DNA of 64,000 nt from Ignavibacteria bacterium. Its GTDB lineage: Bacteria > Bacteroidota > Ignavibacteria > Kapaibacteriales > UBA2268. Under the pieces are notes generated by a model. It was not told the origin of the DNA. It did not search any database and saw only the letters and a list, made by a program, of their open reading frames with translations. This document shows, one piece after another, positions 22,261 to 44,758 of this stretch. A program made the position numbers and the translations under genes. Position 1 is the stretch's first letter, and the number at the start of each line of letters is the position of its first letter. The stretch lies in assembly GCA_016844745.1 (NCBI GenBank), contig JAERMQ010000018.1, positions 15,629-79,628 on the forward strand, read 5' to 3'.

Positions 22261-22280
22261 CTTTCATTAACCATTGACCA

Positions 22281-24672: not shown

Positions 24673-24699
24673 TACAAAGATATTTTTTTCAACTCAATC

Positions 24700-27324: not shown

Positions 27325-27378
27325 TTATTTCCTTATTATTTTGGTTTCTTACATTAATTTTTTTCATTATATAATTGG

Positions 27379-27482: not shown

Positions 27483-27537
27483 CTTATCTTTGTTATTTTC
27501 AATTGCTTACTATTCCTATTTTAAGAATTTTCAATAT

Positions 27538-28914: not shown

Positions 28915-28925
28915 AATTTCTATTC
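28845..28925. repeat. heptanucleotide tandem repeats (TAATTCG x4 then TAATTCA/TGATAAT variants)
   Basis: Read directly. Overlaps the first ~25 codons of the TolC-like ORF. Confidence 0.8.
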
Positions 28926-31900
28926 CCCTTCCTTCATCCAGCCTGACATTTTGGATAATTCCAGTTTTCCTTTTTTCAGCGCTCTTTCTTTCATAATAAC
29001 AAAGAGAATAGGAGTTACAACGAGAACATGAATAGCAGAAGTAAGCAAGCCTCCAATCATTGGCGCTGTAAGAGGTTTCATAACATCCGAGCCTGTGCCG
29101 GTTGACCACATAACAGGAACTAATCCAACTATAGCAACGAAAACGGTCATAAGTTTCGGTCTCAATCTCAGGACTGAACCTTCTACGGCAGCTTCGTAAA
29201 TATCTTCTTTTGTAATTTGATGTCTTGCTCCATCCACATGTCCTTTGATTCTTTTGTCTAAAGCTTCGTGAAGGTAAACCACCATCACAACACCGGTTTC
29301 AACAGCAACTCCATATAAAGCAATAAAGCCTACCCAAACAGCGACCGAAAAATTATATCCTAAAATATATATCATGTACATTCCACCGATTAATGCAAAA
29401 GGAACCGACAGCATTACTACTCCGGCTTCTTTATAATCATGCAAGGTGAAAAAGAGCAGAACATAAATTATAAGAAAAACGATAGGCATGATAATTTCAA
29501 TAGTTCGTTGAGCACGCACTTTGCTTTCGTATTGTCCGCTCCACAAATATGTATAACCTGTCGGAAGATTCAGACTATCGGTAATAACTTTCTTTGCATC
29601 TTCCATGACGCTTCCCATATCCCTTCCGCGGGTATTCATAAACACAATCGAGCGGAGCATAGCGCTTTCGCTGTTTATCATAGGAGCGCCGGTCGATACT
29701 GTAATATCTGCTAATTCATATAGCGGCAGGAAAATTTTAGCATTTGTCGATTGCGCTAAAAGACTCGCCGTATTTATATCCGAATTTGATATACTTGAGT
29801 TCTGCTCAGATGAACCCGTCATACTGCTCATGGAACCGGCTCCGGATGATTTTTTAGCTCCGCTGCCCATCGAACTCATCGAAGTAGCAGCCATTCCGGA
29901 TGATGAAGCAACCGGAACAATCAAACTTTTCAAATCTTCTATCGTATTCCGGACATCCCGCTCATATCTCATTCTTACCGGAAACCGCATCCTGCCTTGG
30001 AATACTACGCCAATATTCTCTCCGCCGATAGCCGTCTCAATAATATCCTGAACATCGCTGATATTAATTCCATACCGTGCAATAGATTCCGTCTTTAAAG
30101 CAATATCGAGATAATATCCGCTTTGTGTTCTTTCAGCTACTACATCGGCAGCGCCATGGACGTTTTGCAGTATTCTTTCAGCTTTTATGGCATAATATTC
30201 AAGAGTATCGAGATTGTCGCCGAATATTTTTAATCCGATATCCGTGCGTACTCCGGTTGATAGCATATTTATTCTATTGATTATCGGTTGAGTCCAACCG
30301 TTACGAACACCAGGTATTTGCAGCTTCCTGTCCAATTCTGCAACTATATCGTTTTTCTTAACTCCGGGGCGCCATTGATTCTTCGGTTTTAGTAATATTA
30401 TGGTTTCAATCATGCTAAGTGGTGCATTATCCGTTGCAGTCTCGGCTCTGCCTGCCTTGCCAAGCACATGAGAAACTTCGGGAATACTCATAATGATTTT
30501 ATCCTGAACGAGAAGAATCCTGTTTATCTCGGACATAGAAACGTTTGGCAAGGTAACCGGCATGTAGAGAATAGAGCCTTCATCCAACGGGGGCATAAAT
30601 TCCGAACCGGTTTTCATTATCATAGGTATTGTTATAAGTAATGCTACAACATTTAGAAAAAGAGTAATTTTTCTATGCTTCAGCACCCAATGAATAACCG
30701 GTTCATAGATTTTGATAAAGAACCTTGTTATTGGATTCTTCATTTCGGGGCGGAATTTACCTCTCATCAATAGTGTCATCAGCACCGGAATCAGTGTAAT
30801 TAACACAATCGCTGATGCAGCCAGGGTGAAAGTTTTTGTATAAGCAAGGGGTTTAAATAGTTTTCCTTCTTGTCCGGTTAGAAAAAAGACCGGCAGAAAT
30901 GAAACCAATATAATGAGTTCGGAGAAGAATATTGCCCTGCCGACCTGTTTGGCAGACATAATCGAGATTTTTGTATATTCCTCGCTTGTCAGATGTTCTT
31001 TTTGAGTTAATGCATGAGCTATATTCCGGTAGGCATTCTCGACCATGACAATCGAAGCATCGACTATTACTCCTATCGCCAGAATTATACCTCCCAAACT
31101 CATAATATTAGAAGTAACATTGAAGAGATGCATCAGGATAAAGGCTAATAAAACCGAAATGGGTATTTCGATAATTATACGTAAAATACTTCTGAAATGA
31201 AGAAGGAATAAAGCTACCATAATAGAAACAACGAGCGCTGCTTCCAATAATGCCTGCTCCAGAGTACCAACTGCTTCTTTGATTAAAGTGCTTCTGTCAT
31301 AAGAAGGGATGATATCCACGCCGGGGGGTAATCCCGGTTTTATTTCATTAATTCTTGATTTTACATCATCGATTACCTTACTTGCATTCTCTCCCTGCCT
31401 CATAACGACGATACCTCCGACAACTTGTCCTTTGCCGTTTTTTTCGAGAGAACCGCGCCTGATATCGCCGCCTAATTGTACTTTCGCAATATCTTTCAGC
31501 AGTACCGGAATTCCGTTCGGACCGGCTTTGATTGCAGCATTTTCCAAACTTTCTTTGTCCTGAATATATCCTTGCCCTCTTACGAAATACTCTGCATCAT
31601 TCAATTCCAATAATTTCCCGCCAACCTCATTATTGCTTCGCTGAATTGTATTGACAACATCGGAGGTCGAAACGTTGTAGCTTCTTAGCTTTGAAGGGTC
31701 GATATCAACCTGATATTGCCTTACGTAACCTCCTATGCTTGCTATTTCGGAAACTCCCGGAACGGATACTAATTTATATCTAATAAACCAATCCTGTAGA
31801 GTCCTCAATGTACCTAAATCATATCCTTTGCCTTCGACAGTGTACCAGTAAACATGCCCAACACCGGTTCCGTCCGGTCCTAAAACAGGAGTTACTCCGT

Positions 31901-32267
31901 TCGGGAGCGAAGATGAGATTGTTGCCAATCTTTCCAGCACTCTCGTTCTGGCAAAGTATATATCAACATTATCTTCAAAAATTACGAAAATAAAAGACAT
32001 CCCGAACATTGAAGAAGCCCTGACTGCCTTCACACCGGGCAATCCCTGCAAATTGGTAACTAAGGGATAAGTAACTTGCTGTTCGATTATGTCGGGCGAC
32101 CTTCCCATCCATTCTGTAAATATTATTACCTGATTCTCCGATAGGTCAGGAATTGCATCGATTGGGAGCGTCGCTACCGAATATATGCCAATACCTGTTA
32201 CAACGACATATAATAACAGGACAATGAATCTATTCTGAGCGCTCCATTCGATTAATTTTTCAATCAT
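28920..32267 (-). CDS. cusA: heavy-metal efflux RND pump, CusA/CzcA family
   Basis: 'DAIPDLSENQVIIFTEWMGRSPDIIEQQVTYPL' is diagnostic of the CusA/HME family; 12-TM architecture; 1115 aa. Confidence 0.9.
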   Translation of the reverse strand: MIEKLIEWSAQNRFIVLLLYVVVTGIGIYSVATLPIDAIPDLSENQVIIFTEWMGRSPDIIEQQVTYPLVTNLQGLPGVKAVRASSMFGMSFIFVIFEDNVDIYFARTRVLERLATISSSLPNGVTPVLGPDGTGVGHVYWYTVEGKGYDLGTLRTLQDWFIRYKLVSVPGVSEIASIGGYVRQYQVDIDPSKLRSYNVSTSDVVNTIQRSNNEVGGKLLELNDAEYFVRGQGYIQDKESLENAAIKAGPNGIPVLLKDIAKVQLGGDIRRGSLEKNGKGQVVGGIVVMRQGENASKVIDDVKSRINEIKPGLPPGVDIIPSYDRSTLIKEAVGTLEQALLEAALVVSIMVALFLLHFRSILRIIIEIPISVLLAFILMHLFNVTSNIMSLGGIILAIGVIVDASIVMVENAYRNIAHALTQKEHLTSEEYTKISIMSAKQVGRAIFFSELIILVSFLPVFFLTGQEGKLFKPLAYTKTFTLAASAIVLITLIPVLMTLLMRGKFRPEMKNPITRFFIKIYEPVIHWVLKHRKITLFLNVVALLITIPMIMKTGSEFMPPLDEGSILYMPVTLPNVSMSEINRILLVQDKIIMSIPEVSHVLGKAGRAETATDNAPLSMIETIILLKPKNQWRPGVKKNDIVAELDRKLQIPGVRNGWTQPIINRINMLSTGVRTDIGLKIFGDNLDTLEYYAIKAERILQNVHGAADVVAERTQSGYYLDIALKTESIARYGINISDVQDIIETAIGGENIGVVFQGRMRFPVRMRYERDVRNTIEDLKSLIVPVASSSGMAATSMSSMGSGAKKSSGAGSMSSMTGSSEQNSSISNSDINTASLLAQSTNAKIFLPLYELADITVSTGAPMINSESAMLRSIVFMNTRGRDMGSVMEDAKKVITDSLNLPTGYTYLWSGQYESKVRAQRTIEIIMPIVFLIIYVLLFFTLHDYKEAGVVMLSVPFALIGGMYMIYILGYNFSVAVWVGFIALYGVAVETGVVMVVYLHEALDKRIKGHVDGARHQITKEDIYEAAVEGSVLRLRPKLMTVFVAIVGLVPVMWSTGTGSDVMKPLTAPMIGGLLTSAIHVLVVTPILFVIMKERALKKGKLELSKMSGWMKEGE

Positions 32268-32439
32268 TTTTAACTTTCAATTTATTTTCCATTTTATTTC
32301 AACAAGAGATTCAAAAGCATTAAATTGAGTTCTTATTTATTTTGAATCAGTTTCCTATAAAATCAAATATATAGATTCATAAACAATATCAGCAGACAAC
32401 AAATTTTGAATTTATAGAACTAAATAATTTACCAATTAC

Positions 32440-32826
32440 TTATTTAACATCAATATCATTTTCTTTTAAATTTTTTATTGCCGCTAAATTCTTCACTTTT
32501 TCTAATTCCATACTACAAATAGGACAATTTCCGGGTTTGTCTGAAATTACATTCCAGTGCATCTGGTCTTGATAAACATACCCATCCTTATTAGTGTCAA
32601 TTGCATAGACATCAATTTTTCCTTTTTTGATTAAGGTTGTATCTCCTTCTTTAGCGTCTTTCAGACTATGGTCCGAATGGTCTGAACTCCCGGAGTGACC
32701 TGAGTGGTTTCCATGACCTTTCATACTACAGCACTGAGAATTCAGGCTTGAAATTGATAATGCAAAGATAATGATTATTCCTGCTATCAAAGGAATAATA
32801 ACTTGTTTGAAATCTACTTTGAGCAT
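32440..32826 (-). CDS. periplasmic His-rich metal-binding protein with heavy-metal-binding module (CusF-like chaperone role)
   Basis: Signal/TM, 'HGNHSGHSGSSDHSDHS', and 'HWNVISDKPGNCPICSMEL', the same module found at both ends of the CusB-like protein. Confidence 0.6.
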   Translation of the reverse strand: MLKVDFKQVIIPLIAGIIIIFALSISSLNSQCCSMKGHGNHSGHSGSSDHSDHSLKDAKEGDTTLIKKGKIDVYAIDTNKDGYVYQDQMHWNVISDKPGNCPICSMELEKVKNLAAIKNLKENDIDVK

Positions 32827-32839
32827 TTTGAAATCCTTT

Positions 32840-33496
32840 TTATTTGTTGATAAATATTTGCTTTTCTATCGAAATTGTTGGCGTTTTTAAAATAAGAAAA
32901 TAAACACCTGACGCTAATTCAGAACCATCGAATATAAGAAGATGCTTTCCTTCAATTTGAAGTTCATTAATTAATGATTTGACTAATAATCCTTTCATAT
33001 CGAAAACATTGATAATTACATTCTCACTCACTGGTAAATAATATTTTATCTCTGTATTTGATATAAAAGGATTTGGATTTGCTTGTAATGTTAAACCAAT
33101 AATACCAGAAGCATCATTAACATCGGCTATCGACTTTACCTGAATTTCGATAGGAACTGTTACCGGACCGTGATGTGGGTCGGTAACAATAATATTGGAC
33201 TTATAAGTACCGGATGAAAGTATAGTTGCATCAATCTTTAATACAATAAAAGCAGTGTCATTTATGTTAAGATTGCCGGAGACAGAGTTAAAACTAATCC
33301 AACTTTCGGAAGCGCTGATTTTATAACCCAAATTACCTGAAGGTCCCTGATTTGTTATATGAAAAATCATTGAGCTTTTTTGACCCGCAGGAACCGGAAT
33401 CACTAACTGGTTCGGATGTACGTTCAAACTTGCGAATGCACTTGTTGAGAATAATACAGTAAGTATAATAATTCCCATAAATTTAGCTGACGTCAT
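32840..33496 (-). CDS. secreted beta-sandwich protein with T9SS C-terminal domain
   Basis: Signal peptide; C-terminal 'ANPNPFISNTEIKYYLP...GVYFLILK'. Confidence 0.5.
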   Translation of the reverse strand: MTSAKFMGIIILTVLFSTSAFASLNVHPNQLVIPVPAGQKSSMIFHITNQGPSGNLGYKISASESWISFNSVSGNLNINDTAFIVLKIDATILSSGTYKSNIIVTDPHHGPVTVPIEIQVKSIADVNDASGIIGLTLQANPNPFISNTEIKYYLPVSENVIINVFDMKGLLVKSLINELQIEGKHLLIFDGSELASGVYFLILKTPTISIEKQIFINK

Positions 33497-33539
33497 AATT
33501 CTCCTGTTTTTATTTAAACATATCTACTTTATTATTTTT

Positions 33540-34610
33540 CTATTCGATTTTTAAGGGTAAATACATAGATACTTCTGCTCCTGATTCAATGTTCTTAGCT
33601 TCGACTTTCCCATTATGATATTCCATAATTAATCCTACTATAGCCAGGGAAAGTCCTAATCCCTCAGTATGGTGAAGAATATCATTAACTGTAAATAACT
33701 CAAATATCTGAGGTAAAACTTCTTCTGAGAAACCATTTCCTTTATCCTGAAAACAGAGAATAAAGTAATTACCTTCAATAGTTAAAATCACTTTAATTTC
33801 ACTTCCTTTGTCTGAAAATTTAATAGCATTATTCAAAATACTTTCAATTGAAAAAGCAATCAGGTTTTCATCTATTTCAACATAAATATTTTCAGCGATA
33901 AAATTTTTAGAGATATTTAAAATATTCGAACCATCCAACTCATTGAAATGTATAGTAACGTTATTAACAAAATCATCAAGATTAATTTTAACGGGTGATA
34001 AATTATGTTCCCTGAGTTTTAGTTTAGTAACCATAAGTGCTGTCTCTGAAAATTTGTTTAATCTTTTTGCCGAGTCAAATAAATGCTGTGCAATTTCTTT
34101 ATTATTTGTATTTTCAAGTTCAGTTAGAAGTATATTTGCGAGCCCCATAATACCATTAAGTGGTGTTTTTAATTCATGAGAAATTAAACTTAATATATCG
34201 CTTTTTGATTTACTTAGATGTTCAAGTTTCAAATTCGCATTAGTTAATGCTTCCGTTCTATCAATTACTTTTTGTTCGAGTGTTTTATTAAGTTCATTTA
34301 ATGTATTTTCCGATGATTTTAATTTATATTGCGTTCTATATAAAAATACCATACTGAATAAAAAAGAAATAATCAGAATATATAGTATTCTATGATAAAT
34401 TAGCATTTCAGGTATATTAAAAATTAATAAATCCAAGAAATTCATGTTTTGTGACATTTTGTCCTCAACCATCATCGGTTCAAGGATTGTTGCTAAAATC
34501 CAAACTATAGCCGAAACTAAAAGAATGATGGCTATCGTATTTTCTCTTATTTTTTTAAATTTCATTTTATTTCCTTTTCCTTGAGTTAAGCGTTTTTCTT
34601 GAAGTTCCAC
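33540..34610 (-). CDS. sensor histidine kinase
   Basis: N-terminal TMs, HisKA 'SHELKTPLNGIMG', and an HATPase_c region. Confidence 0.8.
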   Translation of the reverse strand: MELQEKRLTQGKGNKMKFKKIRENTIAIILLVSAIVWILATILEPMMVEDKMSQNMNFLDLLIFNIPEMLIYHRILYILIISFLFSMVFLYRTQYKLKSSENTLNELNKTLEQKVIDRTEALTNANLKLEHLSKSKSDILSLISHELKTPLNGIMGLANILLTELENTNNKEIAQHLFDSAKRLNKFSETALMVTKLKLREHNLSPVKINLDDFVNNVTIHFNELDGSNILNISKNFIAENIYVEIDENLIAFSIESILNNAIKFSDKGSEIKVILTIEGNYFILCFQDKGNGFSEEVLPQIFELFTVNDILHHTEGLGLSLAIVGLIMEYHNGKVEAKNIESGAEVSMYLPLKIE

Positions 34611-34701: not shown

Positions 34702-36192
34702 TTATACCAATTGATATTGTAACATCATGCCATCATCCTCGTGTTCAAGATTGTGGCAATGAAAAACAAATACACCTTTTAATGTTGCAAATGAGATAAT
34801 GATTTTTACTGTTTCACGAGGCAAAACTAAAACGGTATCCTTAAAACCGTTTTCTGAAGCGGTCAACTGTCCCCTTCCTCCGGTTCTTTCCAACACCTGG
34901 AAATTCACTCCGTGCAAATGCATAGGATGAGGTTCATCGCCCTGTGAATTATCAAATACCCATATCTCTGTTGTATTTGCAGAAACAGTTTCATCTATCC
35001 TGTTTTTATCATATATTTTATTATTGATTCTATGAATACCTGTCATATTCATGCCACCGGTCATTTGCGGGGCATTAATAATAAAATTTCTTGTCTTTGA
35101 AGATGATGAAGGTAAAATAGCATTGACAGAAGAAAGCGAAGTCGGTACTTTAAAACTATCACTTACGATTTGTGATACTTTAAACTTCATAATCTTAAAC
35201 GTTTGTTTACCTTGAGCGCTACCACCGTTATCAAATATCCTGTTTTCCAAAAATATCTCTGTACCAGAGGTCAAGCCGGCAAAGTTTACCAGCACATCTA
35301 ATCTTTCTCCGGGAGCTAATAAAATACTTTTTACGGCTATAGGATTTCTTAACAGACCGCCATCATTTCCGATAATTATCATATCAGCATTATTACTTAA
35401 AGCAAGATTATAAATACGGGCATTTGAACCGTTTAATATTCTCAAGCGGTAAAATCTTGTTTCTACTTCACAATAAGGTGAGGCTTCTCCATTTACAATA
35501 ATTGTTTCACCCATATAACCCGACATTATTTCTCCCATAGAAGGATTATATGTAATACCTGATGCTGTAAGCCGCTTGTCCTGTATTACCAAAGGAATTT
35601 CATAATTACCTGACGGCAGATTTAAAGCAGCTTCTTCTGCATCGTTAATGATAAATAAACCTGCTAATCCCTGAAAAGCCTGTCTTGCAGTTGCTCCATC
35701 CGGGTGCGGATGATACCAGCATAGTCCTGCTCTTTGATTAATTATGAATTGGTAATTAAAACTACCTCCGGGATTTATAACAGCTTCCGGATGTCCATCC
35801 ATATTGGCAGGAATTTTTAATCCATGCCAGTGGATATTACTTTTTTCAGAAAGATTATTCTGAAAATTGATATTGGCATTAATTCCATTATTAACACGAA
35901 TTGTAGGTCCCAATATACCGTTTGCCTGGTAACCAAATACTGATTTATTGCTGCCATTAATATTTGCAGTTGTTGCCTGGGCTGTTAATGTTGTATTACC
36001 TGTTACTGTGTTTGGAATGGGGAGTAGCCTGCTGAAATTCCCTTCTGTTACAGGAACCGGTTGACTCCCCATATTCATATCACCGTTGTTCATCACGTTG
36101 CCGCATGATTCTAAAAAAGTGAACATAGAACTACCCACTAATACACTGCCTGCTCCCAGACCTGTGTTTTTTATAAATTCTCTTCGTTTCAT
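34702..36192 (-). CDS. multicopper oxidase (CueO/CopA-like), Tat-exported
   Basis: 'RREFIKNTGLGAGSV' Tat signal. 'HWHGL', 'HPMHLHG' and 'HCHNLEHEDDGMM' are the copper-ligand motifs. Confidence 0.85.
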   Translation of the reverse strand: MKRREFIKNTGLGAGSVLVGSSMFTFLESCGNVMNNGDMNMGSQPVPVTEGNFSRLLPIPNTVTGNTTLTAQATTANINGSNKSVFGYQANGILGPTIRVNNGINANINFQNNLSEKSNIHWHGLKIPANMDGHPEAVINPGGSFNYQFIINQRAGLCWYHPHPDGATARQAFQGLAGLFIINDAEEAALNLPSGNYEIPLVIQDKRLTASGITYNPSMGEIMSGYMGETIIVNGEASPYCEVETRFYRLRILNGSNARIYNLALSNNADMIIIGNDGGLLRNPIAVKSILLAPGERLDVLVNFAGLTSGTEIFLENRIFDNGGSAQGKQTFKIMKFKVSQIVSDSFKVPTSLSSVNAILPSSSSKTRNFIINAPQMTGGMNMTGIHRINNKIYDKNRIDETVSANTTEIWVFDNSQGDEPHPMHLHGVNFQVLERTGGRGQLTASENGFKDTVLVLPRETVKIIISFATLKGVFVFHCHNLEHEDDGMMLQYQLV

Positions 36193-36222
36193 ATATATAT
36201 TTTTATAGTGAATAATAAGTAA

Positions 36223-37194
36223 TTAATCATTGTCCCAATTATAGATACTAATGAAATACGCAATTATGGAATTAATATCCCTGCGCGTCAAATGGTATTC
36301 CCAGGAAGGCATCAATAGAGGCGGTGTAAAGGACTTAGAGTCTGCTTTTTGAACAACGGGCGCACCATTCAATATTTTTTGGGTGATTGAATTATATTGA
36401 GCATAAAACCTGCTGAAACTGGGGAAGGGGGGAGAATCGTTCAGCTTATCAAGGTCTACACCCCGCTCCAACAACTTGATTAAGCTGTCCGCTTCTTTCT
36501 TTTCCCCAATTTTAAGTTTTTTTGCTAACGTAATTAAATCAGGTATGGTTCTATTGACGTAATTCGGATTAAATACGCCACCGATACCGGATTGTCCATG
36601 GCATGTAAAGCATCCCTTATCAATGAAAAGAAGCTGCCCGCGCTTTATGAAAGAAATCGATGAACCCGCAGCTAATGCCGGATTAGGTGCGCAACAATCA
36701 GCACGAACAGTATCTGTAGATAACTTCTTAGCCAATTCTGTATTTTTTATTTGCTCATGGCTCAATACGACTATATTCCCCCGCATATAATTGTGGCAAT
36801 GTCCACAAAATGTAGTGCAGTAATATTCAAATTTACCGGTTACTTTCGGTGTAAATGGAACATCATAGTAGTGACCTGCTTCCACAACGATAGGTCCAAA
36901 GCCTATTTCCGGTGCATAAAAAGTATGTGTTACGTCGGCGCTTGTAAATCTGAAAATTACTTCTTCATCTTGTGTAAGAACTATATTGGCTCTTTTAAAA
37001 GTTTGACTCCCATTATTAGTGGCTGTGACTAAATCTTCAGTCCAGATTCCTTGCGAAGCTAAACCGGTAAGATGTATAACTCTTTTCTTAGTAAGGTTCA
37101 TCCATGGAGCATTTAATGAAATAGCTAATGGCGTTCCAATCAGAATAATTATTACGACAGCGCCGGCAAATATTTCTTTGAACTTGTTTTTCAT
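36223..37194 (-). CDS. CuA-type cupredoxin domain fused to a c-type cytochrome domain (CoxB-like)
   Basis: 'HTF...CTTFCGHCHNYM' fits the CuA C-x3-C-G-x2-H-x2-M pattern. 'CFTCHG' is a heme c site. N-terminal TM. Confidence 0.6.
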   Translation of the reverse strand: MKNKFKEIFAGAVVIIILIGTPLAISLNAPWMNLTKKRVIHLTGLASQGIWTEDLVTATNNGSQTFKRANIVLTQDEEVIFRFTSADVTHTFYAPEIGFGPIVVEAGHYYDVPFTPKVTGKFEYYCTTFCGHCHNYMRGNIVVLSHEQIKNTELAKKLSTDTVRADCCAPNPALAAGSSISFIKRGQLLFIDKGCFTCHGQSGIGGVFNPNYVNRTIPDLITLAKKLKIGEKKEADSLIKLLERGVDLDKLNDSPPFPSFSRFYAQYNSITQKILNGAPVVQKADSKSFTPPLLMPSWEYHLTRRDINSIIAYFISIYNWDND

Positions 37195-37205
37195 TATTAT
37201 TTCCT

Positions 37206-38675
37206 TTATCCAATAAAAAATATTAAAAACGCCATTGTCACAAGCAAGGCAAAACCAGCCATAGGAATTAACCCCATGAGCGCTGCCTTATCTGTTTTAT
37301 ATAATCTAAAGCTAACAAAATAACCACGTGAAATAGCATAGCCTAATCCAACCACCAATAAAATTAACTGGACATAGCCTAAATATTCCGGCAGGAGAGG
37401 CTGCCACTTGAAATCCGCTGTTCCGAATAGATTCCATCCCCATCCGAGAGGGTCGGAAATTACAGAAATGATATATGAACCGTTTATGAACATCAAAGGA
37501 AAACTAAATGCTATCCATGCTAAAAGCCCCAGCGGTACCAAAATATATGAAAAACCTTTAAATATTTCCCTTACAGTTACCGAATCAACACCAGACATTC
37601 GTTTTGACAGATATGAGAACAGATAGAATACTCCCGGAACAATAATCAAAGCCGAAGACCATAATATTCCGGCATAAATGAAAAAGCCGCCCCATAAGCC
37701 TGATTCCGATGCATTAGCCCAATCTTTAACCGTTCCGTTTGTCCCCAATAGTATTACCGAATATGCCATAGCCAATGCAAGCATGATAAATCCTTTAAAG
37801 GACTCGTCGAGGCTTTTGATTTTCGTTTCGGATGCAAATGGTCGAACATTCAGAGCTATGTTATCATTCTTACATGATTTGACGCACTCCATGCACAAAC
37901 CGCAATAATTATTACGTTCCATATTTCCTATGTATTCGAACCACGGGCAAGCCCATCCATCCTCATTTCCGCGAATACATCCCTTATCTTTGCATTTTTT
38001 GCAAACATCTTTATCGCCGCTTCGCAATTCCATAGTCGATGCCATTGAATACAGGCTCAGAAATCCGCTTACCGGGCAAACATAACTGCAAAATACACGC
38101 TGCCGCCAAACTATTGCTAATAAAGTACCTAAAAGCAGCATAGTTCCAAGCACTACTGAAGTAACAAAGGGACGAGTGACCAATACTGCGCTGAATGTGC
38201 ATAATGTCAAGAAGCCAATATTTTGAATCCATATATTCGAAAGAAATTTAGGCCATTTCAGGTTAAATCCGAACATTTTGTTTCTTAAATTAAAAGTCTT
38301 GCCAATCCTCACCATGATTAATGCCATTCGCTGAAATAATTCGCCGAAGAATGGCAGCGGGCATACGGTACACCAGATACGTGATGCAAAGGGAACCATT
38401 ATTGCTATTAACAAAAACCACCACAAAATCCAAATAAATACAATAGCGATATTTCTATTTCCAACAGGTGTGCCTATTAATCCAGCTATGATTATTACAT
38501 AAAACACCAATAAATTCGGCAGGATAACTAAGAACTGGAAAGATCTTGCTTTCAATATTCTCTTAAGCAACGGACTTTTTTTCAATAAATCATGTTTATT
38601 GAATGAATGCTCCTGTTCCGGCAATTTTATTTCAACTGACGGTTGCTTTTCTATTTTATCATCATATATGTACAT
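37206..38675 (-). CDS. membrane polyferredoxin, NapH/MauN/NosR-C-terminal-like 4Fe-4S protein
   Basis: Multiple TMs with 'CTVCP' and 'CSYVCP' motifs and a C-terminal Cys cluster. Confidence 0.6.
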   Translation of the reverse strand: MYIYDDKIEKQPSVEIKLPEQEHSFNKHDLLKKSPLLKRILKARSFQFLVILPNLLVFYVIIIAGLIGTPVGNRNIAIVFIWILWWFLLIAIMVPFASRIWCTVCPLPFFGELFQRMALIMVRIGKTFNLRNKMFGFNLKWPKFLSNIWIQNIGFLTLCTFSAVLVTRPFVTSVVLGTMLLLGTLLAIVWRQRVFCSYVCPVSGFLSLYSMASTMELRSGDKDVCKKCKDKGCIRGNEDGWACPWFEYIGNMERNNYCGLCMECVKSCKNDNIALNVRPFASETKIKSLDESFKGFIMLALAMAYSVILLGTNGTVKDWANASESGLWGGFFIYAGILWSSALIIVPGVFYLFSYLSKRMSGVDSVTVREIFKGFSYILVPLGLLAWIAFSFPLMFINGSYIISVISDPLGWGWNLFGTADFKWQPLLPEYLGYVQLILLVVGLGYAISRGYFVSFRLYKTDKAALMGLIPMAGFALLVTMAFLIFFIG

Positions 38676-38711
38676 AGGCTTATTTACTTTTTATTTCTAA
38701 AGTGGTAATTT

Positions 38712-38812
38712 TTTTTAAAAACCCTCACCCTAACCCTCTCCCAGAGTGAGAGGGAATTATAAATTATTTTCCCTCTCCCTTTGGGAGAGGGTTAGGGTGA
38801 GGGTTCTATATT
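38712..38812. repeat. CCCTAACCC-family hairpin variant with covarying arms (CCCTCACCCTAACCCTCTCCC...GGGAGAGGGTTAGGGTGAGGG)
   Basis: Read directly; the arm substitutions are mirrored on the opposite arm. Confidence 0.7.
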
Positions 38813-38827
38813 TAAATTGATTCCTTT

Positions 38828-39337
38828 TCATGTTCTTGATTTCTTTGTTCTAAAATAAATCATACCTAACATTCCCAAAGCAAAACCAACCGTAGCGCCT
38901 AATCCTGCATTAAATAAAATATTCGGATTAACCAGCATTTCTCCCTGCATGAATGGGTGCATCGTACCGCAAGTGTGAGAGCAGCGGTAACGGAATTTGC
39001 CTCTTTTATTTGCTATGATAACTATTTCGCTTGTGTCCTTCCAATTGAATCCTTCTGATGGGTGTCGTATTTTAAAGGTTTTAAGATTGGCCGGAATTTC
39101 GGCATCCAAATCGTATCCTTCCAAATAGAAGCCATGCATAACATCCAAAGAAACTAATCTAATGTGCAAAGTATCGCCATGATTAACTTCGAATCTGTCC
39201 GGCTCGTAAGAGTATTGACGTGCTTTGACGACGATATCCCTTCTTATGGGTTTTGACGAACCACCACCGGAGACAAACCCGACAACACTTCCGAATATTG
39301 TTATTAGCAGAGGCAGAACTATATATTTTGATTTCAT
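38828..39337 (-). CDS. CuA-like cupredoxin domain protein with C-terminal TM anchor
   Basis: 'CSHTCGTMHPFM' fits C-x3-C-G-x2-H-x2-M. Confidence 0.5.
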   Translation of the reverse strand: MKSKYIVLPLLITIFGSVVGFVSGGGSSKPIRRDIVVKARQYSYEPDRFEVNHGDTLHIRLVSLDVMHGFYLEGYDLDAEIPANLKTFKIRHPSEGFNWKDTSEIVIIANKRGKFRYRCSHTCGTMHPFMQGEMLVNPNILFNAGLGATVGFALGMLGMIYFRTKKSRT

Positions 39338-39370
39338 ACTCTATTCTATTATTTTTTGAATTTCAATTTT

Positions 39371-39970
39371 CTACTTCGCCAATTTAAATACTACATCAAC
39401 CTTAGCGCCAGATACAGTAATTTCCTGAGCCGGACCCTTCAATTTCTCGTTCCATACTTTTAGGGTATATTTACCAGCAGGTACGTTTTTAATTGAAAAA
39501 TTCCCATCCTTATCAGTTGATGAAAAATATGGATTCTGCAATACGACAACGTAAGCCTCCATTTCAGGATGCACATTACACAGAATAACACTTCTGCAGC
39601 CTGTTTGCGAAAATTTATGAGAACGGATTTCTCCCTTTTTCCATGAACCGAGATTGAATTTGTCTGCACAGGCATCCGGTGAAAAAACGTTATGCAGAAC
39701 ATCGTCGTTATTTAAAAAATTGACTGTGGTACCAACCAGCACCGGCATCACTCTTGGAGTGAAGACCAGACTTTTTTGGTTCATTTCGGGATTCTTTGCG
39801 GGGGGCTTAAAATTGCCGTCTGCCTTCTCGATATAAACCACGCAATAGGCTTTATATTTTGTTTTATTAGCATCCGTTTCGATGTGTCCTTTGATTTCAC
39901 CGGCATACATATTAATGTATGCCGATAAAAACAAAAGAAGAATAATTTTATTTAAAATTCTGTTTTTCAT
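39371..39970 (-). CDS. secreted cupredoxin-like + CarboxypepD_reg-like domain protein
   Basis: H...C...'CNVHPEM' ligand-like spacing, plus 'DKDGNFSIKNVPAGKYTLKV'. Confidence 0.4.
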   Translation of the reverse strand: MKNRILNKIILLLFLSAYINMYAGEIKGHIETDANKTKYKAYCVVYIEKADGNFKPPAKNPEMNQKSLVFTPRVMPVLVGTTVNFLNNDDVLHNVFSPDACADKFNLGSWKKGEIRSHKFSQTGCRSVILCNVHPEMEAYVVVLQNPYFSSTDKDGNFSIKNVPAGKYTLKVWNEKLKGPAQEITVSGAKVDVVFKLAK

Positions 39971-39984
39971 TATTCACCAAATAA

Positions 39985-40377
39985 TTATTGAATAGTTATC
40001 GTAAAATCTTTCATACCCATTTCACCGGCGTGGTTATAGTTACATGCGAGTTTATACGTACCCATTTCCTTAAAGGTGTATTCGCATTTAAATACTCCTA
40101 TCGCTTGTTTGGTTGCCGTCAATTTTATTGGTGATTCAGTGCCTTTTGTTACTGTAACATCAACATCGGTAACATCAGCAGGAACCATATTATCCATAAT
40201 TTCAAAAACAAATGTTGTAGGAATGTTGGGGACTATCGGATTTGGAGTATAAGTCATCGTGACTTCTGTTGCATGGTCATTATCGGTACTATGGGATGTT
40301 TCGCCACATGATGTCAGGGTTATTGAAAACAGAATAACAAATGTTATTCCGATGGCTGAATTGATTGATATTTTCAT
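39985..40377 (-). CDS. lipoprotein (FixH/YtkA-like fold?)
   Basis: 'ITLTSCGE' lipobox. The ORF track extends to 40431, but MKISIN at 40377 gives a proper signal peptide. Confidence 0.4.
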   Translation of the reverse strand: MKISINSAIGITFVILFSITLTSCGETSHSTDNDHATEVTMTYTPNPIVPNIPTTFVFEIMDNMVPADVTDVDVTVTKGTESPIKLTATKQAIGVFKCEYTFKEMGTYKLACNYNHAGEMGMKDFTITIQ

Positions 40378-40425
40378 GGTTTTTCCTTTAATATTAAAAA
40401 AGTTATTTAAATTTTTATACCCTCG

Positions 40426-40481
40426 TGTCAAGAGTTTCTCTTGACATCCTTTTTTCGAGTCAAGAGGAACTCTTGACTCGA
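40426..40481. promoter_or_regulatory. tandem palindromes TGTCAAGAG-TTT-CTCTTGACA and GAGTCAAGAG-GAA-CTCTTGACTC (candidate operator); paralogous copy at 42235-42290
   Basis: Read directly. Both copies sit ~50-100 bp upstream of minus-strand redox genes. Confidence 0.5.
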
Positions 40482-40490
40482 GGTTTCCAT

Positions 40491-41780
40491 TTATAATGCG
40501 AAATCAAGTCCTATAAACAAATTAAACATGTCGGTTTTATTTGGATTAATTACAGTTTCTGCTTTTATTTTTACATTAGCTACGAGAAGCGAACTTATAT
40601 GTACCACTATTTGCTTCCCAGAAGGGAGAGTTTTCAGATTCGCCTGCTCGTAACGGACAATTCCTGCAAGCCACGGATAGAACATATATTGCGCTTCACC
40701 GAAAAACAAATTGTATTTCTGGGCATCTGCAGCGCCATCCGAGCCAAGTAATATTCCTCCGGTTACGCGCAGGCTACCCATAATAAAACTAATATCACTG
40801 CCTGCCCGGTAGAAATCATAATCTTCATTTGCAGATAATGTACCAATACCCTTATATCCGAAAGCGCCTAATGAGAAGGATGTTTCTTTCGAATTATCAA
40901 ATTTTTCCGCCGATGTAGTGTCATTTGTGGAAGTTCCGTCGAAAGCCAAGCCACCGAATTTATATGCTAATCTGCCATAAAAATCCCTGCTTGAATTCCT
41001 ATCTGCAGCAACACTATTTCCGTTTACTACACCAATAACGTAACGAAGCCGGCTATGTAAAACACCGCTGACCTCCGCTCCCAATTGAAACTGCTCGATT
41101 CCGAATGTTCCGGTGCCATGAGCATGTCCCGCAACAAATTTATCTCCCATCGATGGGGAGTATGTATTCATCGCATAGGCAGCCTCTGTTAAACTACGGT
41201 GAAATGTAGCGAATGGGACTATTTCAGGGATAAACTGACCCACTTTCAGATATAGGGCTTTCTCCGGCAGCCAGTCTGTCAATAGGTTATCGAACTTCAT
41301 AAAGAAATTATCAATACTGCCGGTCTCGCCGTTTTCGAATAGATGAGCTCCAATCCAAAATGATAAATCCTTACCTAATACGCCAGCGGCTAAAATTTGT
41401 AGAGCAGGCATACCGAATTGGGATGTAGTTTGACCGGACGAATCATCAGTAGATACTGTGAATGCCGACCTTCCACGAAGTGAGAAAGGAGCTGTGCCGG
41501 GGATTGAATTTGGCCAGACCGCATCGGGCCACACTCTTTTATATGCTTCCGCACCCATTGGAACAGGTTTTTCTTTGACATTTTCTTCATCGTCAACCGG
41601 AAATTGATAACCGTTAATCCTGAAGGATTCGCCAAAGGAATTCAATTGCGGATATACTGTATGGCAGGTAACACAGCTTGTCTGGTATTTTCGTGCAAAG
41701 GCCGGATTTGCATAAGAAGTTTGATTAATCAGTAAAGTCCAGATTAATACAACAAACGCTGCAATAATTATTTTTTTCAT
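40491..41780 (-). CDS. fused monoheme cytochrome c / outer-membrane beta-barrel (Cyc2-like)
   Basis: Signal peptide followed directly by 'CVTCH', then ~400 aa of alternating beta-strand-like sequence ending in an aromatic residue. Confidence 0.5.
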   Translation of the reverse strand: MKKIIIAAFVVLIWTLLINQTSYANPAFARKYQTSCVTCHTVYPQLNSFGESFRINGYQFPVDDEENVKEKPVPMGAEAYKRVWPDAVWPNSIPGTAPFSLRGRSAFTVSTDDSSGQTTSQFGMPALQILAAGVLGKDLSFWIGAHLFENGETGSIDNFFMKFDNLLTDWLPEKALYLKVGQFIPEIVPFATFHRSLTEAAYAMNTYSPSMGDKFVAGHAHGTGTFGIEQFQLGAEVSGVLHSRLRYVIGVVNGNSVAADRNSSRDFYGRLAYKFGGLAFDGTSTNDTTSAEKFDNSKETSFSLGAFGYKGIGTLSANEDYDFYRAGSDISFIMGSLRVTGGILLGSDGAADAQKYNLFFGEAQYMFYPWLAGIVRYEQANLKTLPSGKQIVVHISSLLVANVKIKAETVINPNKTDMFNLFIGLDFAL

Positions 41781-41799
41781 ATATATTCTCTGCTTTATA

Positions 41800-42189
41800 T
41801 TAATTATTTTTACTTCCCTGATTTCTCCAGGCTTTTATTTTTGCAATATCACAATCATCGCTGATATAATTACTCATATTGCCAAATCTGATGCTGTTAT
41901 AAAGTTTACCGGATACCGAATTGATTTTGATATTCTCATAACCATCAAGATTAACACCTCCGTATTGACTGGTATTGTTGTGGCAAGTTTTACATCTTTC
42001 ATCTATGATTGGTTTGATAAAATCCTTAAAGGAAACTTTGTTAGTATCACAAGATAGTTTAATCTCCGGAGCTATACCTACGGCATATTGGTCGTTTTCG
42101 CAGGATAGTAATCCGACAACAATGATTAATAGGAGCCAAACAAATCCTCTAAAAGGAATAGTAATTATTCCATGAAATGGTATTTTCAT
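41800..42189 (-). CDS. monoheme c-type cytochrome
   Basis: 'CKTCH'; N-terminal TM/signal. Confidence 0.6.
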   Translation of the reverse strand: MKIPFHGIITIPFRGFVWLLLIIVVGLLSCENDQYAVGIAPEIKLSCDTNKVSFKDFIKPIIDERCKTCHNNTSQYGGVNLDGYENIKINSVSGKLYNSIRFGNMSNYISDDCDIAKIKAWRNQGSKNN

Positions 42190-42353
42190 GACTTTGTCCT
42201 CAAATTTAATAATTATTTTAAAGGTTTTTACCTTGTGTCAAGAGTTCCTCTTGACACTTATTGATTAGTCAAGAGCAGCACTTAACTCGATGATAACAGG
42301 TAAATCGCCCTACATTAAGGTTTTATTTTTAAAAGGATATTTTGCTAAGAATT

Positions 42354-42977
42354 TTAGCAATAGATATTTGAAGGGATGTCGCTATCGCTCCCTTCGTCGG
42401 AGGTAAAATGAATGAAGGATATTATGCCTGATATTGGTTCTTTAAGTGGGTATTGAACCTTCTTAAAGGCAATATTAACAGGTTTATAATTATATAATAA
42501 ATGAGAGAGAACAAAATCGGAATAGGAAAAATGATTAGAAGAAATCAGTTTAAAATGAGATATTGAATTAAATGATGATTTGATTTTGAATTTAAGAAAG
42601 GAATCTTTGCAACATGTAGAATTGTCCTTACCAAAATTAATACTTTTGGAACAACTTGATTTTTTAGAAATATTATCTTTTTTAATCAATTTGGATTTTT
42701 TCTTTATACATGAACCACAATTAAACATGGATTTCTTTCCTGTTTTAGATTTTGAATATTGGGAACTGCTGCCGGATTTTTTTGATTGTTCAATTATACG
42801 ATGTGAACTGCAACATGAATATTCATTATTCTTATGGGAATCAAAAAAAGATATATGCGTTGTTCCATTATGCTTGCATTGGTGTATGGAAACATTCACG
42901 CCCAGAGCCGATATTGGAAATATCGCCATTAAAAACGCTGCTGTTATATATCTTATTTTTCTTATCATACCAAACAA
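42354..42977 (-). CDS. secreted Cys/Lys/Ser-rich low-complexity protein
   Basis: Signal peptide; CC/CxxC pairs within a K/S-rich sequence. Confidence 0.3.
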   Translation of the reverse strand: MFGMIRKIRYITAAFLMAIFPISALGVNVSIHQCKHNGTTHISFFDSHKNNEYSCCSSHRIIEQSKKSGSSSQYSKSKTGKKSMFNCGSCIKKKSKLIKKDNISKKSSCSKSINFGKDNSTCCKDSFLKFKIKSSFNSISHFKLISSNHFSYSDFVLSHLLYNYKPVNIAFKKVQYPLKEPISGIISFIHFTSDEGSDSDIPSNIYC

Positions 42978-44278: not shown

Positions 44279-44758
44279 TTACTTTCCCTGAACTGTTGGC
44301 AAAGTCATTGTAGTTCTTTGTTTTGGATTATCGCAAACCCCGTCTCCATCAGCATCGATAAAGTTTGGTTTATTATTACCCTGATTTCTCATTCCTGAAC
44401 CGGTTGTTCCTGTTGTAAAATTATCGCAAACACCATCACCATCGGCATCGATGAAATTTGGTTTATTTTTACCCTGATTTCTCATTCCTGCACCTGTTTT
44501 CCCGGTTGCATTATTATCGCAAATCCCATCACCATTTGCATCGATGAAATTTTTACCGTTCATCCCATTTCTACCCAAACCGGCTCCTGCGGTACCTGTT
44601 GGATTGTTATCGCAGATTCCGTCTCCATTTGCATCGATGAACCTCGCTCCTTTAGAAGCAGCCATTTTACCCTTTCCATGTGGCTGGGCAATTGATATTG
44701 AATTCGATATTACCATTGTTACAACAAACAATGCAATTATTCCAATTAATTTCTTCAT
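44279..44758 (-). CDS. secreted repeat protein: 4 x 'NFIDA[ND]GDG[IV]CDN' (Excalibur/EF-hand-like Ca-binding motif)
   Basis: Signal peptide; four near-identical ~23-aa repeats. Confidence 0.6.
   Translation of the reverse strand: MKKLIGIIALFVVTMVISNSISIAQPHGKGKMAASKGARFIDANGDGICDNNPTGTAGAGLGRNGMNGKNFIDANGDGICDNNATGKTGAGMRNQGKNKPNFIDADGDGVCDNFTTGTTGSGMRNQGNNKPNFIDADGDGVCDNPKQRTTMTLPTVQGK

Follow-up and report, generated by a model that had tools for sequence, protein, structure and literature searches.

The question raised by this locus is what two CuA copper domains are doing in a gene cluster that has neither of their usual partners, since CuA normally belongs to cytochrome oxidase subunit II or the N2O reductase NosZ. 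The window analysed is a stretch of 64,000 nucleotides from an Ignavibacteria bacterium (GCA_016844745.1, contig JAERMQ010000018.1, positions 15,629 to 79,628). A sequence-only reading had noted eight consecutive minus-strand genes here, interpreted as an uncharacterised periplasmic/outer-membrane electron-transfer or copper-handling pathway next to a Cu/Ag efflux system. Our ORF listing confirmed eight co-oriented minus-strand ORFs at 34702-42189, separated by 11-152 bp. The CuA pattern C-x3-C-x3-H-x2-M occurs only twice in the six-frame translation of the whole window, in two of these genes. No HPEVY-type haem-copper oxidase subunit I motif was found in the window, and no NosZ-like or CoxI-like ORF appeared among ORFs of 150 aa or more.

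To determine whether these are true CuA sites, the two proteins were compared with known CuA domains. The gene at 36223-37194 (-) encodes an N-terminal membrane anchor, a COX2-like cupredoxin with CTTFCGHCHNYM, and a cytochrome c domain (CFTCH, PPLLMPSW), and H90, C126, C130, H134, M137, C195, C198, H199 and M295 are invariant in 28 homologues. The gene at 38828-39337 (-) encodes a small cupredoxin held between an N-terminal and a C-terminal membrane helix, with CSHTCGTMHPFM. A profile of this second family hits the CuA domain of Thermus ba3 subunit II at E=4e-16, with H68, C119, C123, H127 and M130 aligned. Both domains carry the full binuclear ligand set (H…C-x3-C-x3-H-x2-M) and align with the Thermus domain ligand for ligand. 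The motifs are conserved in 37/38 CuA–cytochrome c proteins, 19/19 separate small CuA proteins and 14/14 fused ones.

Moreover, the genes are strongly syntenic and not scattered. The same ordered core, consisting of the Cyc2-like porin-cytochrome, type-1 cupredoxin, membrane-anchored CuA, NapH-type polyferredoxin and CuA–cytochrome c fusion, was found in about 35 loci from MAGs labelled as at least eight phyla. Interestingly, the small CuA is fused to the polyferredoxin in 14 loci. No haem-copper oxidase subunit I motif or NosZ-sized gene was seen within 10 kb at any family locus, whereas outgroup COX2 genes sit beside CoxI. These findings support the interpretation of the sequence-only reading, and no paper describing this operon was found.

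However, the earlier description needs correction at several points. It included a multicopper oxidase, which is the three-domain protein at 34702-36192 (-), 30 bp downstream of the core, with an RREFIK Tat motif and CueO as its best NCBIfam match (332 bits, below the 525 cut-off). None of about 40 related loci has one, and we regard it as an addition at this locus that belongs with the copper-homeostasis island. The conserved unit, on the other hand, starts one gene further upstream, outside the coordinates given earlier, with a Cys-rich DUF8199-like protein at 42354-42977 (-) that has an N-terminal signal or anchor. It is the first gene of the unit in Bacteroidota/Ignavibacteria/Kapabacteria-type loci. 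It aligns with the first gene of the related loci L002, L005 and L006, our family HMM finds it in L005, L008, L009 and L010, and the equivalent gene in L048 and L006 is annotated PF26622 DUF8199. The protein at 39985-40431 (-), previously described only as a lipoprotein, is a Met-rich YtkA/CtaK-like protein (Pfam YtkA, E=4e-5; 8 of 11 family members match), supported by a family alignment, and its real start is probably the ATG at 40380 (lipobox LTSC). CtaK acts in CuA assembly in B. subtilis (PMC9145763), so this protein is probably a periplasmic copper chaperone for CuA assembly. The small single-haem c-type cytochrome lipoprotein at 41800-42189 (-) (CKTCH; weak PSCyt1/PccH and LIC11213 lipoprotein hits) is a movable accessory, as its homologues at L002:3833-4216 and L005:10948-11325 lie in other positions within the cluster.

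The outer-membrane component is encoded at 40491-41780 (-), with a signal peptide, one N-terminal CVTCH at residue 36 and then a porin (weak Porin_O_P hit). The AF2 model predicts a barrel of roughly 16 strands, and a Foldseek search against PDB gave 16-strand porins, including OprP 2o4v and OprO 4rjw. All 27 homologues at the related loci have exactly one N-terminal CXXCH. We describe the protein as a Cyc2-like fused cytochrome-porin without a direct test of homology to experimentally characterised Cyc2 proteins. The gene at 39371-39970 (-) encodes a periplasmic type-1 (blue) copper protein with a plastocyanin/amicyanin-like domain and a C-terminal CarboxypepD_reg/transthyretin-like beta-sandwich. 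Its residues H93, C131, H134 and M137 are invariant, the T1 motif is present in 33/33 homologues, and the protein aligns with amicyanin and the tethered cupredoxin of NirK.

At the inner membrane, the gene at 37206-38675 (-) encodes a NapH-type polyferredoxin with about 9 membrane helices, CxxCP and Cx3CP motifs, two cytoplasmic 4-Cys clusters, and a conserved 5-helix C-terminal module with an invariant SDPxGWGW loop. The NCBIfam NapH/MauN hits are weak, but the cysteines are invariant in our alignments, and among 1986 homologues the top 120 show 55-77% identity. The AF2 model had a pTM of 0.79, and no PDB relative was found by sequence or fold. The positive-inside loops and the fusion order put the Fe-S domain in the cytoplasm and CuA in the periplasm.

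The Cu/Ag efflux neighbourhood was also confirmed by Pfam annotation. The flanking copper-homeostasis island at 21583-34610 (-) contains CueP (21583-22125), a porin with an HMA domain (22281-23576), an FtrD-like/DUF2318 protein with a T9SS tail (24896-25651), CusB (25759-27324), CusC (27538-29109), CusA (28920-32267), an HMBD protein (32440-32826), a BACON/T9SS protein (32840-33496) and a histidine kinase (33540-34610). Cus, CopA, HMBD or CueP genes lie next to the cluster in 9 of 11 Bacteroidota/Ignavibacteria/Kapabacteria-type loci. Electron transfer and copper handling can be partly separated, as the core is inferred to be an electron-transfer chain and the copper-handling genes around it are largely cofactor-supply and homeostasis genes.

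Taken together, the data are best explained by a self-contained electron conduit that spans the cell envelope, although that the parts form one chain, the direction of flow and the substrate are inferences from sequence, in the absence of expression, genetic or biochemical data for any member, and we hold this reading only tentatively. The inner-membrane end would be the polyferredoxin, physically coupled to a periplasmic CuA domain as a separate protein here and as a single fused protein in other phyla, which is the layout of NosR or PceC with a CuA cupredoxin in place of their FMN domain. From there the chain would run through the second membrane-anchored CuA joined to a cytochrome c, then the soluble type-1 cupredoxin, with the small cytochrome c as an optional addition, to the single haem of the Cyc2-like porin. 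The YtkA-like lipoprotein probably loads copper into the CuA sites. Three unrelated copper chaperones (YtkA-like, SCO1 or NosL) were recruited in different lineages, which argues that the CuA sites are real and needed.

The direction we favour is outward. In this view, quinol or cytoplasmic reductant is oxidised at the polyferredoxin and the electrons are delivered to a soluble metal oxidant passing the Cyc2 pore, which could be Fe(III) or, in this copper-island context, Cu(II), which must become Cu(I) before Cus can pump it. NapH, NosH, NosR and PceC are all taken to pass electrons outward, copper and c-haem centres are normally 200-400 mV more positive than [4Fe-4S] clusters or menaquinone, and membrane potential also favours outward electron movement. 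Several host MAGs are labelled as groups generally regarded as anaerobes, for example Desulfobacteraceae and Thermoanaerobaculia. However, the only biochemically shown activity of Cyc2 homologues is Fe(II) oxidation, which sends electrons inward (PMC8406198), and in every known enzyme CuA is an electron entry point. In addition, no cofactor is evident that could carry electrons across the membrane part of the polyferredoxin, as there is no invariant His and so no haem b.

An inward pathway is possible, and it is only slightly less favoured. Here the Cyc2-like protein would oxidise Fe(II), or another reduced metal or mineral, and electrons would pass through the T1 cupredoxin to the cytochrome c–CuA protein and the CuA::polyferredoxin, which would act as the sink and reduce the quinone pool or a cytoplasmic acceptor, making the system a metal:quinone oxidoreductase. 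Alternatively, the cytochrome c domain may branch electrons to a terminal oxidase or denitrification enzyme encoded elsewhere. Cyc2 homologues from all three clusters that were tested oxidise Fe(II) (PMC8406198), and the composition parallels the inward-working Acidithiobacillus rus operon (cyc2, cyc1, coxB with CuA, rusticyanin), with the polyferredoxin in the place of CoxA. The FtrABCD/FtrAPBCD iron-uptake systems pair an outer-membrane protein and a periplasmic copper oxidase with a membrane polyferredoxin (PMC7415376), which may act there as an electron sink. DUF2318/FtrD-like genes plus an FtsX-type ABC transporter accompany the cluster, as they do in the redox-dependent FetMP iron system. 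On the other hand, passing electrons from copper centres at about +200-300 mV to [4Fe-4S] clusters or menaquinone is expected to be uphill, and to run against the membrane potential if the cytoplasmic clusters are on the path. The NapH family has no known energy-coupling device, several host MAGs are labelled as sulfate-reducer groups for which Fe(II) oxidation makes little sense, and no terminal oxidase lies within 10 kb in any locus.

It is less likely that the chain is a copper-stress device, that is, an oxygen-independent periplasmic Cu(I) oxidase or a copper redox buffer that complements CueO, Cus and CueP, in which the cupredoxins take electrons from Cu(I) and pass them to the membrane or to the outside. 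The position of the cluster inside a copper island agrees with this view, as do the copper-homeostasis genes that flank 9 of 11 loci of this lineage and the CusAB of locus L014. The periplasmic copper protein CopI is induced by excess copper in Rubrivivax and Vibrio (PMC7415376). However, outside this lineage (Planctomycetota, most Acidobacteriota, Desulfobacterota) the neighbours are chaperones (NosL, SCO1), an ABC transporter and a sigma-54 two-component system, not efflux genes. A system that needs five copper atoms per chain plus dedicated loading chaperones looks like a copper consumer, efflux ATPases and CueP may also supply copper to periplasmic enzymes, which would explain the adjacency, and the T1 protein has no Met- or His-rich Cu(I)-binding stretch.

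That the CuA proteins are merely spare subunit II paralogues serving a haem-copper oxidase or NosZ encoded elsewhere is very unlikely, even though the CuA–cytochrome c protein has exactly the architecture of caa3 subunit II and the rest of the genome and roughly 16 kb of the contig lay outside our analysis, because of the recurring gene order, the covalent fusion in 14 loci, the presence of the CuA–cytochrome c gene next to every NapH-like context examined, and the absence of CoxI beside family members.

Compared with the A. ferrooxidans rus operon, its Cyc2–Cyc1–rusticyanin–aa3 supercomplex and the neutrophilic Cyc2 pathway, this cluster likewise encodes together an outer-membrane Cyc2-type single-haem porin, a c-type cytochrome, a type-1 cupredoxin and a CuA subunit-II-type protein, and both span the two membranes. 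Here, however, there is no haem-copper oxidase (CoxA) and no bc1 complex or ACIII, there are two CuA proteins instead of one, the NapH-type polyferredoxin takes the place of the membrane catalytic subunit, and the hosts are uncultured organisms not known as iron oxidisers. NosR, NirI, PceC(RdhC), NapGH and NosGH also have a membrane polyferredoxin with CX3CP motifs and two cytoplasmic [4Fe-4S] motifs joined to a periplasmic redox domain, and serve copper or cytochrome acceptors, with NosR and NosGH feeding the CuA of NosZ. The periplasmic domain here is a CuA cupredoxin and not an FMN-binding domain or a NapG ferredoxin, the 5-helix C-terminal module is extra, no NosZ, Nap or Rdh enzyme is present, and the NCBIfam NapH score is far below the cut-off (28 vs 213 bits).

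The Ftr systems combine a periplasmic copper protein with a membrane polyferredoxin (FtrD), FtrAPBCD adds an outer-membrane protein, and DUF2318/FtrD-like proteins and an ABC transporter appear as accessory genes in FetABCDEF of the FetMP-FetABCDEF system (PMC7415376, PMC10783030). No Ftr1/FetM permease and no P19/FtrA gene was identified at the loci we annotated, the copper proteins here are T1 and CuA cupredoxins and not the Cup-II FtrB, and the outer-membrane component is a haem-porin. The caa3-type subunit II (Thermus 2YEV_B, Bacillus CtaC) shares the membrane anchor, CuA and cytochrome c architecture with identical CuA ligands, and a YtkA/CtaK-like lipoprotein or SCO1 is encoded alongside. 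Here no subunit I or III is nearby, and the protein forms its own rare family, with about 25-30 full-length clusters at 50% identity among 1.84 billion representatives, always next to the polyferredoxin. PmoD of methane and ammonia oxidisers is another CuA-type site outside haem-copper oxidases and NosZ (PMC6189053), but its site probably forms at a homodimer interface with a different ligand arrangement, and PmoD appears to be linked to pmo/amo operons, not to a porin-cytochrome or a polyferredoxin.

Finally, a perfect 21-bp palindrome, TGTCAAGAGnnnCTCTTGACA, was found at 42236-42256, 47 bp upstream of the small cytochrome c gene, where it overlaps a TTGACA-18-AATAAT promoter-like site. It was not found in related loci from other organisms. 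Two further copies (40426-40446 and 40458-40478) lie between the Cyc2-like and YtkA-like genes, so that the 3 copies in the window are all inside this cluster, with 0 expected by chance, and the element may be an operator or an RNA hairpin.

The window has about 35% G+C, and eight minus-strand ORFs, separated by gaps of 11-152 bp, occupy positions 34702-42189. Domain scans and reading of the sequences gave, in order of transcription, a single-haem lipoprotein cytochrome c with a CKTCH motif (41800-42189), a 429-aa protein with a signal peptide, one CVTCH at residue 36 and a porin-like remainder (40491-41780), a Met-rich YtkA-like lipoprotein (39985-40431), whose true start is probably at 40380, a secreted cupredoxin with a C-terminal CarboxypepD_reg-like sandwich (39371-39970), a 169-aa cupredoxin held between two membrane helices (38828-39337), a 489-aa NapH-like polyferredoxin (37206-38675), a membrane-anchored cupredoxin–cytochrome c fusion (36223-37194), and a Tat-exported CueO-like three-domain multicopper oxidase (34702-36192). 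The sequence-only reading, which had described eight consecutive minus-strand genes of these kinds, was therefore accurate. Interestingly, a 21-bp perfect or near-perfect palindrome, TGTCAAGAGnnnCTCTTGACA, occurs three times in the 64-kb window (42236-42256, 40426-40446 and 40458-40478), whereas none was expected by chance, and all the copies lie in intergenic spaces of this cluster. One copy overlaps a strong promoter-like site upstream of the small cytochrome c gene. The palindrome could be an operator or an RNA hairpin, but it was absent from all related loci of other organisms, which argues against a conserved operator, and by eye it also appears to differ from the CusR/CopR copper box.

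The fusion protein was found to align with the soluble CuA domain of Thermus ba3 subunit II (E=1.7e-7), with DVTHTF paired with DVLHGF and CTTFCGHCHNYM paired with CSEICGTNHAFM. A profile of the small cupredoxin hit the same structures at E=4e-16 and also hit NosZ CuA domains, and in both proteins the ligands H…C-x3-C-x3-H-x2-M were in register with the Thermus domain. This ligand-for-ligand alignment rejected the possibility, raised in the sequence-only reading, that the CuA-like motifs are mononuclear or Sco-like sites. The ligands were invariant in the alignments of both families. In 28 homologues of the fusion protein, H90, C126, C130, H134 and M137 were invariant, and so were the haem ligands C195, C198, H199 and M295. 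Across all the loci collected later, the complete CuA pattern was present in 37/38 fusion proteins, 19/19 separate small CuA proteins and 14/14 small CuA proteins fused to the polyferredoxin. In the window, the CuA loop of the CuA–cytochrome c protein (residues 130-134, region of 36807) reads CGHCH, so that two CuA ligands also form a CXXCH haem-attachment-like motif. The extra Cys is present in most, but not all, family members (CGESH in some Acidobacteriota), and it is therefore probably not a haem site. The third cupredoxin has an amicyanin-type type-1 site, H93…C131-x2-H134-x2-M137, which is invariant, aligns with amicyanin and with the tethered cupredoxin of NirK, and is present in 33/33 homologues. 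Its Pfam Copper-bind score was 21.8 bits against a cut-off of 21.2.

The genomic contexts of homologues and a scan of one genome per species gave about 45 loci (numbered here with the prefix L), and HMMs of each window family were built and scored against all ORFs of these loci. About 35 loci carry the same ordered core, consisting of the Cyc2-like gene, then the T1 cupredoxin, then the small CuA, then the NapH-like gene, then CuA–cytochrome c, and so the genes are not scattered in related genomes. All of these are MAGs, and their labels include Kapabacteria, Bacteroidota, Ignavibacteriales, Acidobacteriota (Holophagae, Thermoanaerobaculia, Sulfomarinibacter), Planctomycetota, Desulfobacterota, Binatia, Methylomirabilota, Myxococcota, FCPU426 and Betaproteobacteria, although a few labels on short contigs, and the "Hyphomicrobiales" label of locus L009, look like binning errors. 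Moreover, in 14 loci the small CuA protein, including its C-terminal membrane helix, is fused in frame to the N-terminus of the polyferredoxin, giving about 650 aa. This is strong evidence that the two act as one unit. Together with the charge distribution, the fusion order leads us to infer a topology with CuA outside and the polyferredoxin N-terminus inside.

The boundaries of the cluster had to be corrected. The multicopper oxidase, which the sequence-only reading had counted among the eight genes, occurs in no other locus and is a local addition. It has three Cu-oxidase domains, the HCHNLEHEDDGMM motif, an RREFIK Tat motif and a short Met-rich stretch, but the CueO equivalog scored 332 against a cut-off of 525. 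A role of this enzyme as the terminal oxidase of the chain was rejected as a general mechanism, as it occurs only in this window. On the other side, the Cys-rich protein at 42354-42977 is homologous to the first gene of the Kapabacteria, Bacteroidota and related loci, where it is annotated DUF8199, and the conserved unit in this lineage is therefore 36223-42977. The small cytochrome c sits at different positions in loci L002 and L005. Loci L006/L007 show a reduced variant with only DUF8199, Cyc2-like, YtkA-like, the T1 cupredoxin and a cytochrome c, which lies next to a TonB-dependent receptor and an HMA protein.

Three architectural types could be distinguished by their accessory genes. Type A, found in this window and in Bacteroidota, Ignavibacteria and Kapabacteria, adds DUF8199 and the YtkA-like lipoprotein, and in 9 of 11 loci it lies within 10 kb of copper-homeostasis genes, namely CusA/B/C, CopA, HMBD/HMA proteins, CueP, or an FtrD-like/DUF2318 protein with a T9SS tail. 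Type B, found in Planctomycetota, Binatia, FCPU426 and some Acidobacteriota, has a histidine kinase and a sigma-54 response regulator, plus a small cytoplasmic Cys-rich protein, and locus L004 adds SCO1. The kinase of locus L016 has a PilS-like transmembrane region plus PAS with no recognisable metal-sensing domain, which says nothing about the signal. The Cys-rich protein, of roughly 90 aa and with no signal peptide (CPVC…CPGC…CGMCKC, zinc-ribbon or rubredoxin-like), is conserved beside the polyferredoxin in type B loci (L013, L015, L016, L018, L025, L032, L034 and L035; for example, L032 5704-5979), and it could be a cytoplasmic redox partner of the Fe-S clusters. Type C, found in most Acidobacteriota, Desulfobacterota, Methylomirabilota and others, has the fused CuA::polyferredoxin and is flanked by one or two NosL genes, an ABC ATPase, a Cys-rich membrane protein, an FtsX/MacB-type permease and a DUF2318/FtrD-like lipoprotein. 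The DUF2318/FtrD-like Cys-rich domain protein recurs near the cluster in two forms, T9SS-secreted in the Bacteroidota-type loci (24896-25651, minus strand, in the window; 7426-8163 in L002) and as a lipoprotein next to an FtsX-type ABC transporter in Acidobacteriota and Desulfobacterota (for example, 12462-12896 in the type C locus L024), and it may be a further, unrecognised component or an assembly factor. A 1169-aa protein in the window (45144-48653, minus strand) appears, by reading the sequence, to combine N-terminal zinc-ribbon/FHA-like regions with an ABC ATPase and an ABC-2-type membrane domain, and its ATPase part clusters with the ABC ATPases found next to the type C loci.

It is reported that YtkA (CtaK) is a CuA-assembly lipoprotein of B. 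subtilis caa3 oxidase and that Sco also acts in CuA assembly (PMC9145763), while NosL probably serves as a copper chaperone for N2O reductase. The YtkA-like lipoprotein of the window has a lipobox, but its Pfam YtkA hit was just below the cut-off (24.6 vs 25.9 bits); 8 of 11 members match, and the family is Met-rich, although no His or Met is invariant. These observations suggested that three lineages recruited three unrelated putative copper chaperones, and we interpret this as selection for functional copper sites.

No catalytic subunit of a haem-copper oxidase or N2O reductase was found with these CuA proteins, although the roughly 16 kb of the contig outside the window and the whole genomes were not covered by the search. 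The HPEVY motif of haem-copper oxidase subunit I is absent from the window and from all family loci, and it appears only at two outgroup loci, L046 and L047, where ordinary COX2 genes sit next to a roughly 600-aa CoxI. No NosZ-like or CoxI-like ORF was present in the window, and no NosZ-sized gene was seen at the loci.

The polyferredoxin has invariant CxxCP and Cx3CP motifs (C102xxC105P and C196xxxC200P) and two 4-Cys motifs (C225/228/233/243 and C258/261/264/268), as in NapH, and these are present in 34-35 of 35 homologues. The 4-Cys motifs are inferred to lie on the cytoplasmic side. However, the protein scored far below the family cut-offs (NCBIfam NapH/MauN 28 bits against 213; PRK09477 26 against 234), and no NapG, NapA or NosZ was identified nearby. 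It belongs to a distinct, larger family with an extra five-helix C-terminal module carrying an invariant SDPxGWGW loop, and it is predicted to work like NapH or NosR but is not NapH. No histidine is invariant, so a b-haem relay is unlikely. The family is large and very strongly conserved, with 1986 hits, the best 120 at 55-77% identity across phyla, all annotated only as "polyferredoxin", "4Fe-4S binding" or "hypothetical". An AlphaFold model is confident (pTM 0.79), but no relative was found in the PDB by sequence search or by Foldseek. The CuA–cytochrome c family, by contrast, is rare, with about 25-30 full-length clusters at 50% identity among 1.84 billion representatives.

The 429-aa Cyc2-like protein agrees with the recognition criteria of Keffer et al. 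(PMC8406198), which are a signal peptide, a single N-terminal CXXCH, a length of at least 365 aa, and a 16-strand porin resembling OprO/OprP. One N-terminal CXXCH was present in 27/27 homologues. The AF2 model has about 16-17 strands, Foldseek against the PDB returned 16-strand porins at E about 1e-10 to 1e-12, including OprP 2o4v and OprO 4rjw/4rjx, and a weak Pfam Porin_O_P hit was obtained. As all 498 homologues are unnamed and the assignment rests on these criteria without direct comparison with characterised Cyc2 proteins, we call the protein Cyc2-like. Earlier surveys noted Cyc2 homologues in Ignavibacteriaceae and Bacteroidetes MAGs without describing partner genes (PMC6344600, PMC13594681).

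The predicted locations of these redox proteins form a continuous series, from the outer membrane (haem-porin) through the periplasm (T1 copper and small cytochrome c) and the outer face of the inner membrane (cytochrome c and CuA, then CuA) to the inner membrane and its cytoplasmic face (polyferredoxin). With the conserved gene order, the fusion and the putative dedicated copper chaperones, we infer that they form one electron chain, although every statement of function here is a prediction from sequence. For the direction, we tentatively favour outward flow. The layout of a periplasmic redox domain, a membrane part and cytoplasmic Fe-S is that of NosR, NirI and PceC, which, like NapH and NosH, are taken to export electrons to periplasmic acceptors, and NosR and NosGH feed a CuA site. 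In addition, copper and c-haem centres normally lie well above Fe-S clusters and menaquinone in potential, the membrane potential favours outward electron movement, and several host MAGs carry labels of groups generally regarded as strict anaerobes. The acceptor would be a soluble oxidised metal at the Cyc2 pore. In the copper island of this genome Cu(II) is attractive, because Cus appears to handle only Cu(I) and the NapH relative CcoG is probably a cupric reductase, but Fe(III) is equally possible.

The main rival, which is possible and only slightly less favoured, is the classical inward Cyc2 route. All tested Cyc2 proteins oxidise Fe(II), the gene cast mirrors the rus operon, and CuA is an entry site in all known enzymes. 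FtrABCD-type systems pair a copper protein with a polyferredoxin (PMC7415376), and FtrD-like/DUF2318 plus ABC genes accompany both this cluster and FetMP (PMC10783030). However, the weakness of this route is thermodynamic, since the step from copper centres to Fe-S clusters or quinone is uphill. Membership in an FtrABCD or EfeUOB-type iron transporter was itself rejected, as no Ftr1/EfeU-family permease and no P19/EfeO iron-binding protein was identified among the annotated neighbours in the window or loci; only the polyferredoxin/cupredoxin logic and the DUF2318 accessory gene are shared. A copper-detoxification role seems unlikely, as it fits type A neighbourhoods but not types B and C. Chance adjacency, or spare subunits of an oxidase, is effectively excluded by the synteny and the fusion, even though the remainder of the genome was not covered.

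Full-text searches found no description of this operon. All its parts belong to known superfamilies, and trans-envelope conduits are already known; what is new is the presence of two CuA proteins with no oxidase or NosZ found nearby, a CuA fused to a NapH-type polyferredoxin, and the wiring of that pair to a Cyc2-like porin. There remains a doubtful but substantial possibility that the operon encodes a new class of respiratory module, a copper-wired metal:quinone oxidoreductase, in which CuA centres act as relay stations fused to a NapH-type polyferredoxin instead of serving an oxidase or N2O reductase. Depending on the direction, it would be either an oxidase-independent Fe(II):quinone oxidoreductase that would let anaerobes and denitrifiers feed on Fe(II), or a high-potential extracellular reductase for soluble Fe(III), Mn(III) or Cu(II) in sediment bacteria, and in either case it would be spread across phyla by horizontal transfer.

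Apart from PmoD, CuA is known only as the electron entry site of haem-copper oxidases and N2O reductase. A conserved, cross-phylum family in which CuA is fused to an iron-sulfur membrane protein would widen what this cofactor is known to do, and it would also give a tractable model for how NapH/NosR-type proteins move electrons across the membrane, a question that is apparently still unsolved. Cyc2 genes are widely used as metagenomic markers of iron oxidation. Here, Cyc2-like genes sit in MAGs labelled as sulfate reducers, Bacteroidota and Planctomycetota, with a partner set in which no oxidase was found, and marker-based calls of "iron oxidiser" in such groups may therefore be wrong, or may hide a different metabolism. 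In this genome, the link to Cus, CueP and the CueO-like enzyme suggests a connection between copper homeostasis and envelope electron transfer.

A 959-aa molybdopterin oxidoreductase in the window (14178-17057, minus strand, with 13360-14151 and 12716-13363) has both an N-terminal Tat signal and what looks, by eye, like a C-terminal T9SS sorting domain, which would imply a cofactor-loaded enzyme displayed on the cell surface. It is followed by a 4Fe-4S subunit and a chaperone-like gene, and a second Mo-enzyme/Fe-S pair lies at 60726-63475. A ten-haem c-type cytochrome with 10 CXXCH motifs (52537-53844, minus strand) lies next to a rhodanese-like lipoprotein (51455-52456) and a MarR-type regulator (53904-54374), and this may be a separate extracellular or sulfur-linked electron-transfer module in the same genome. 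Two secreted proteins (44279-44758, minus strand, and 56943-57701, plus strand) are built from repeats of F(I/V)DA(N/D)GDG(I/V/K)CDN, an Asp/Cys-rich motif, and no Pfam match was found for the one tested (44279-44758). The second has what looks like a T9SS tail and lies between a histidine kinase and a sigma-54 regulator, and the two may be metal-binding proteins.
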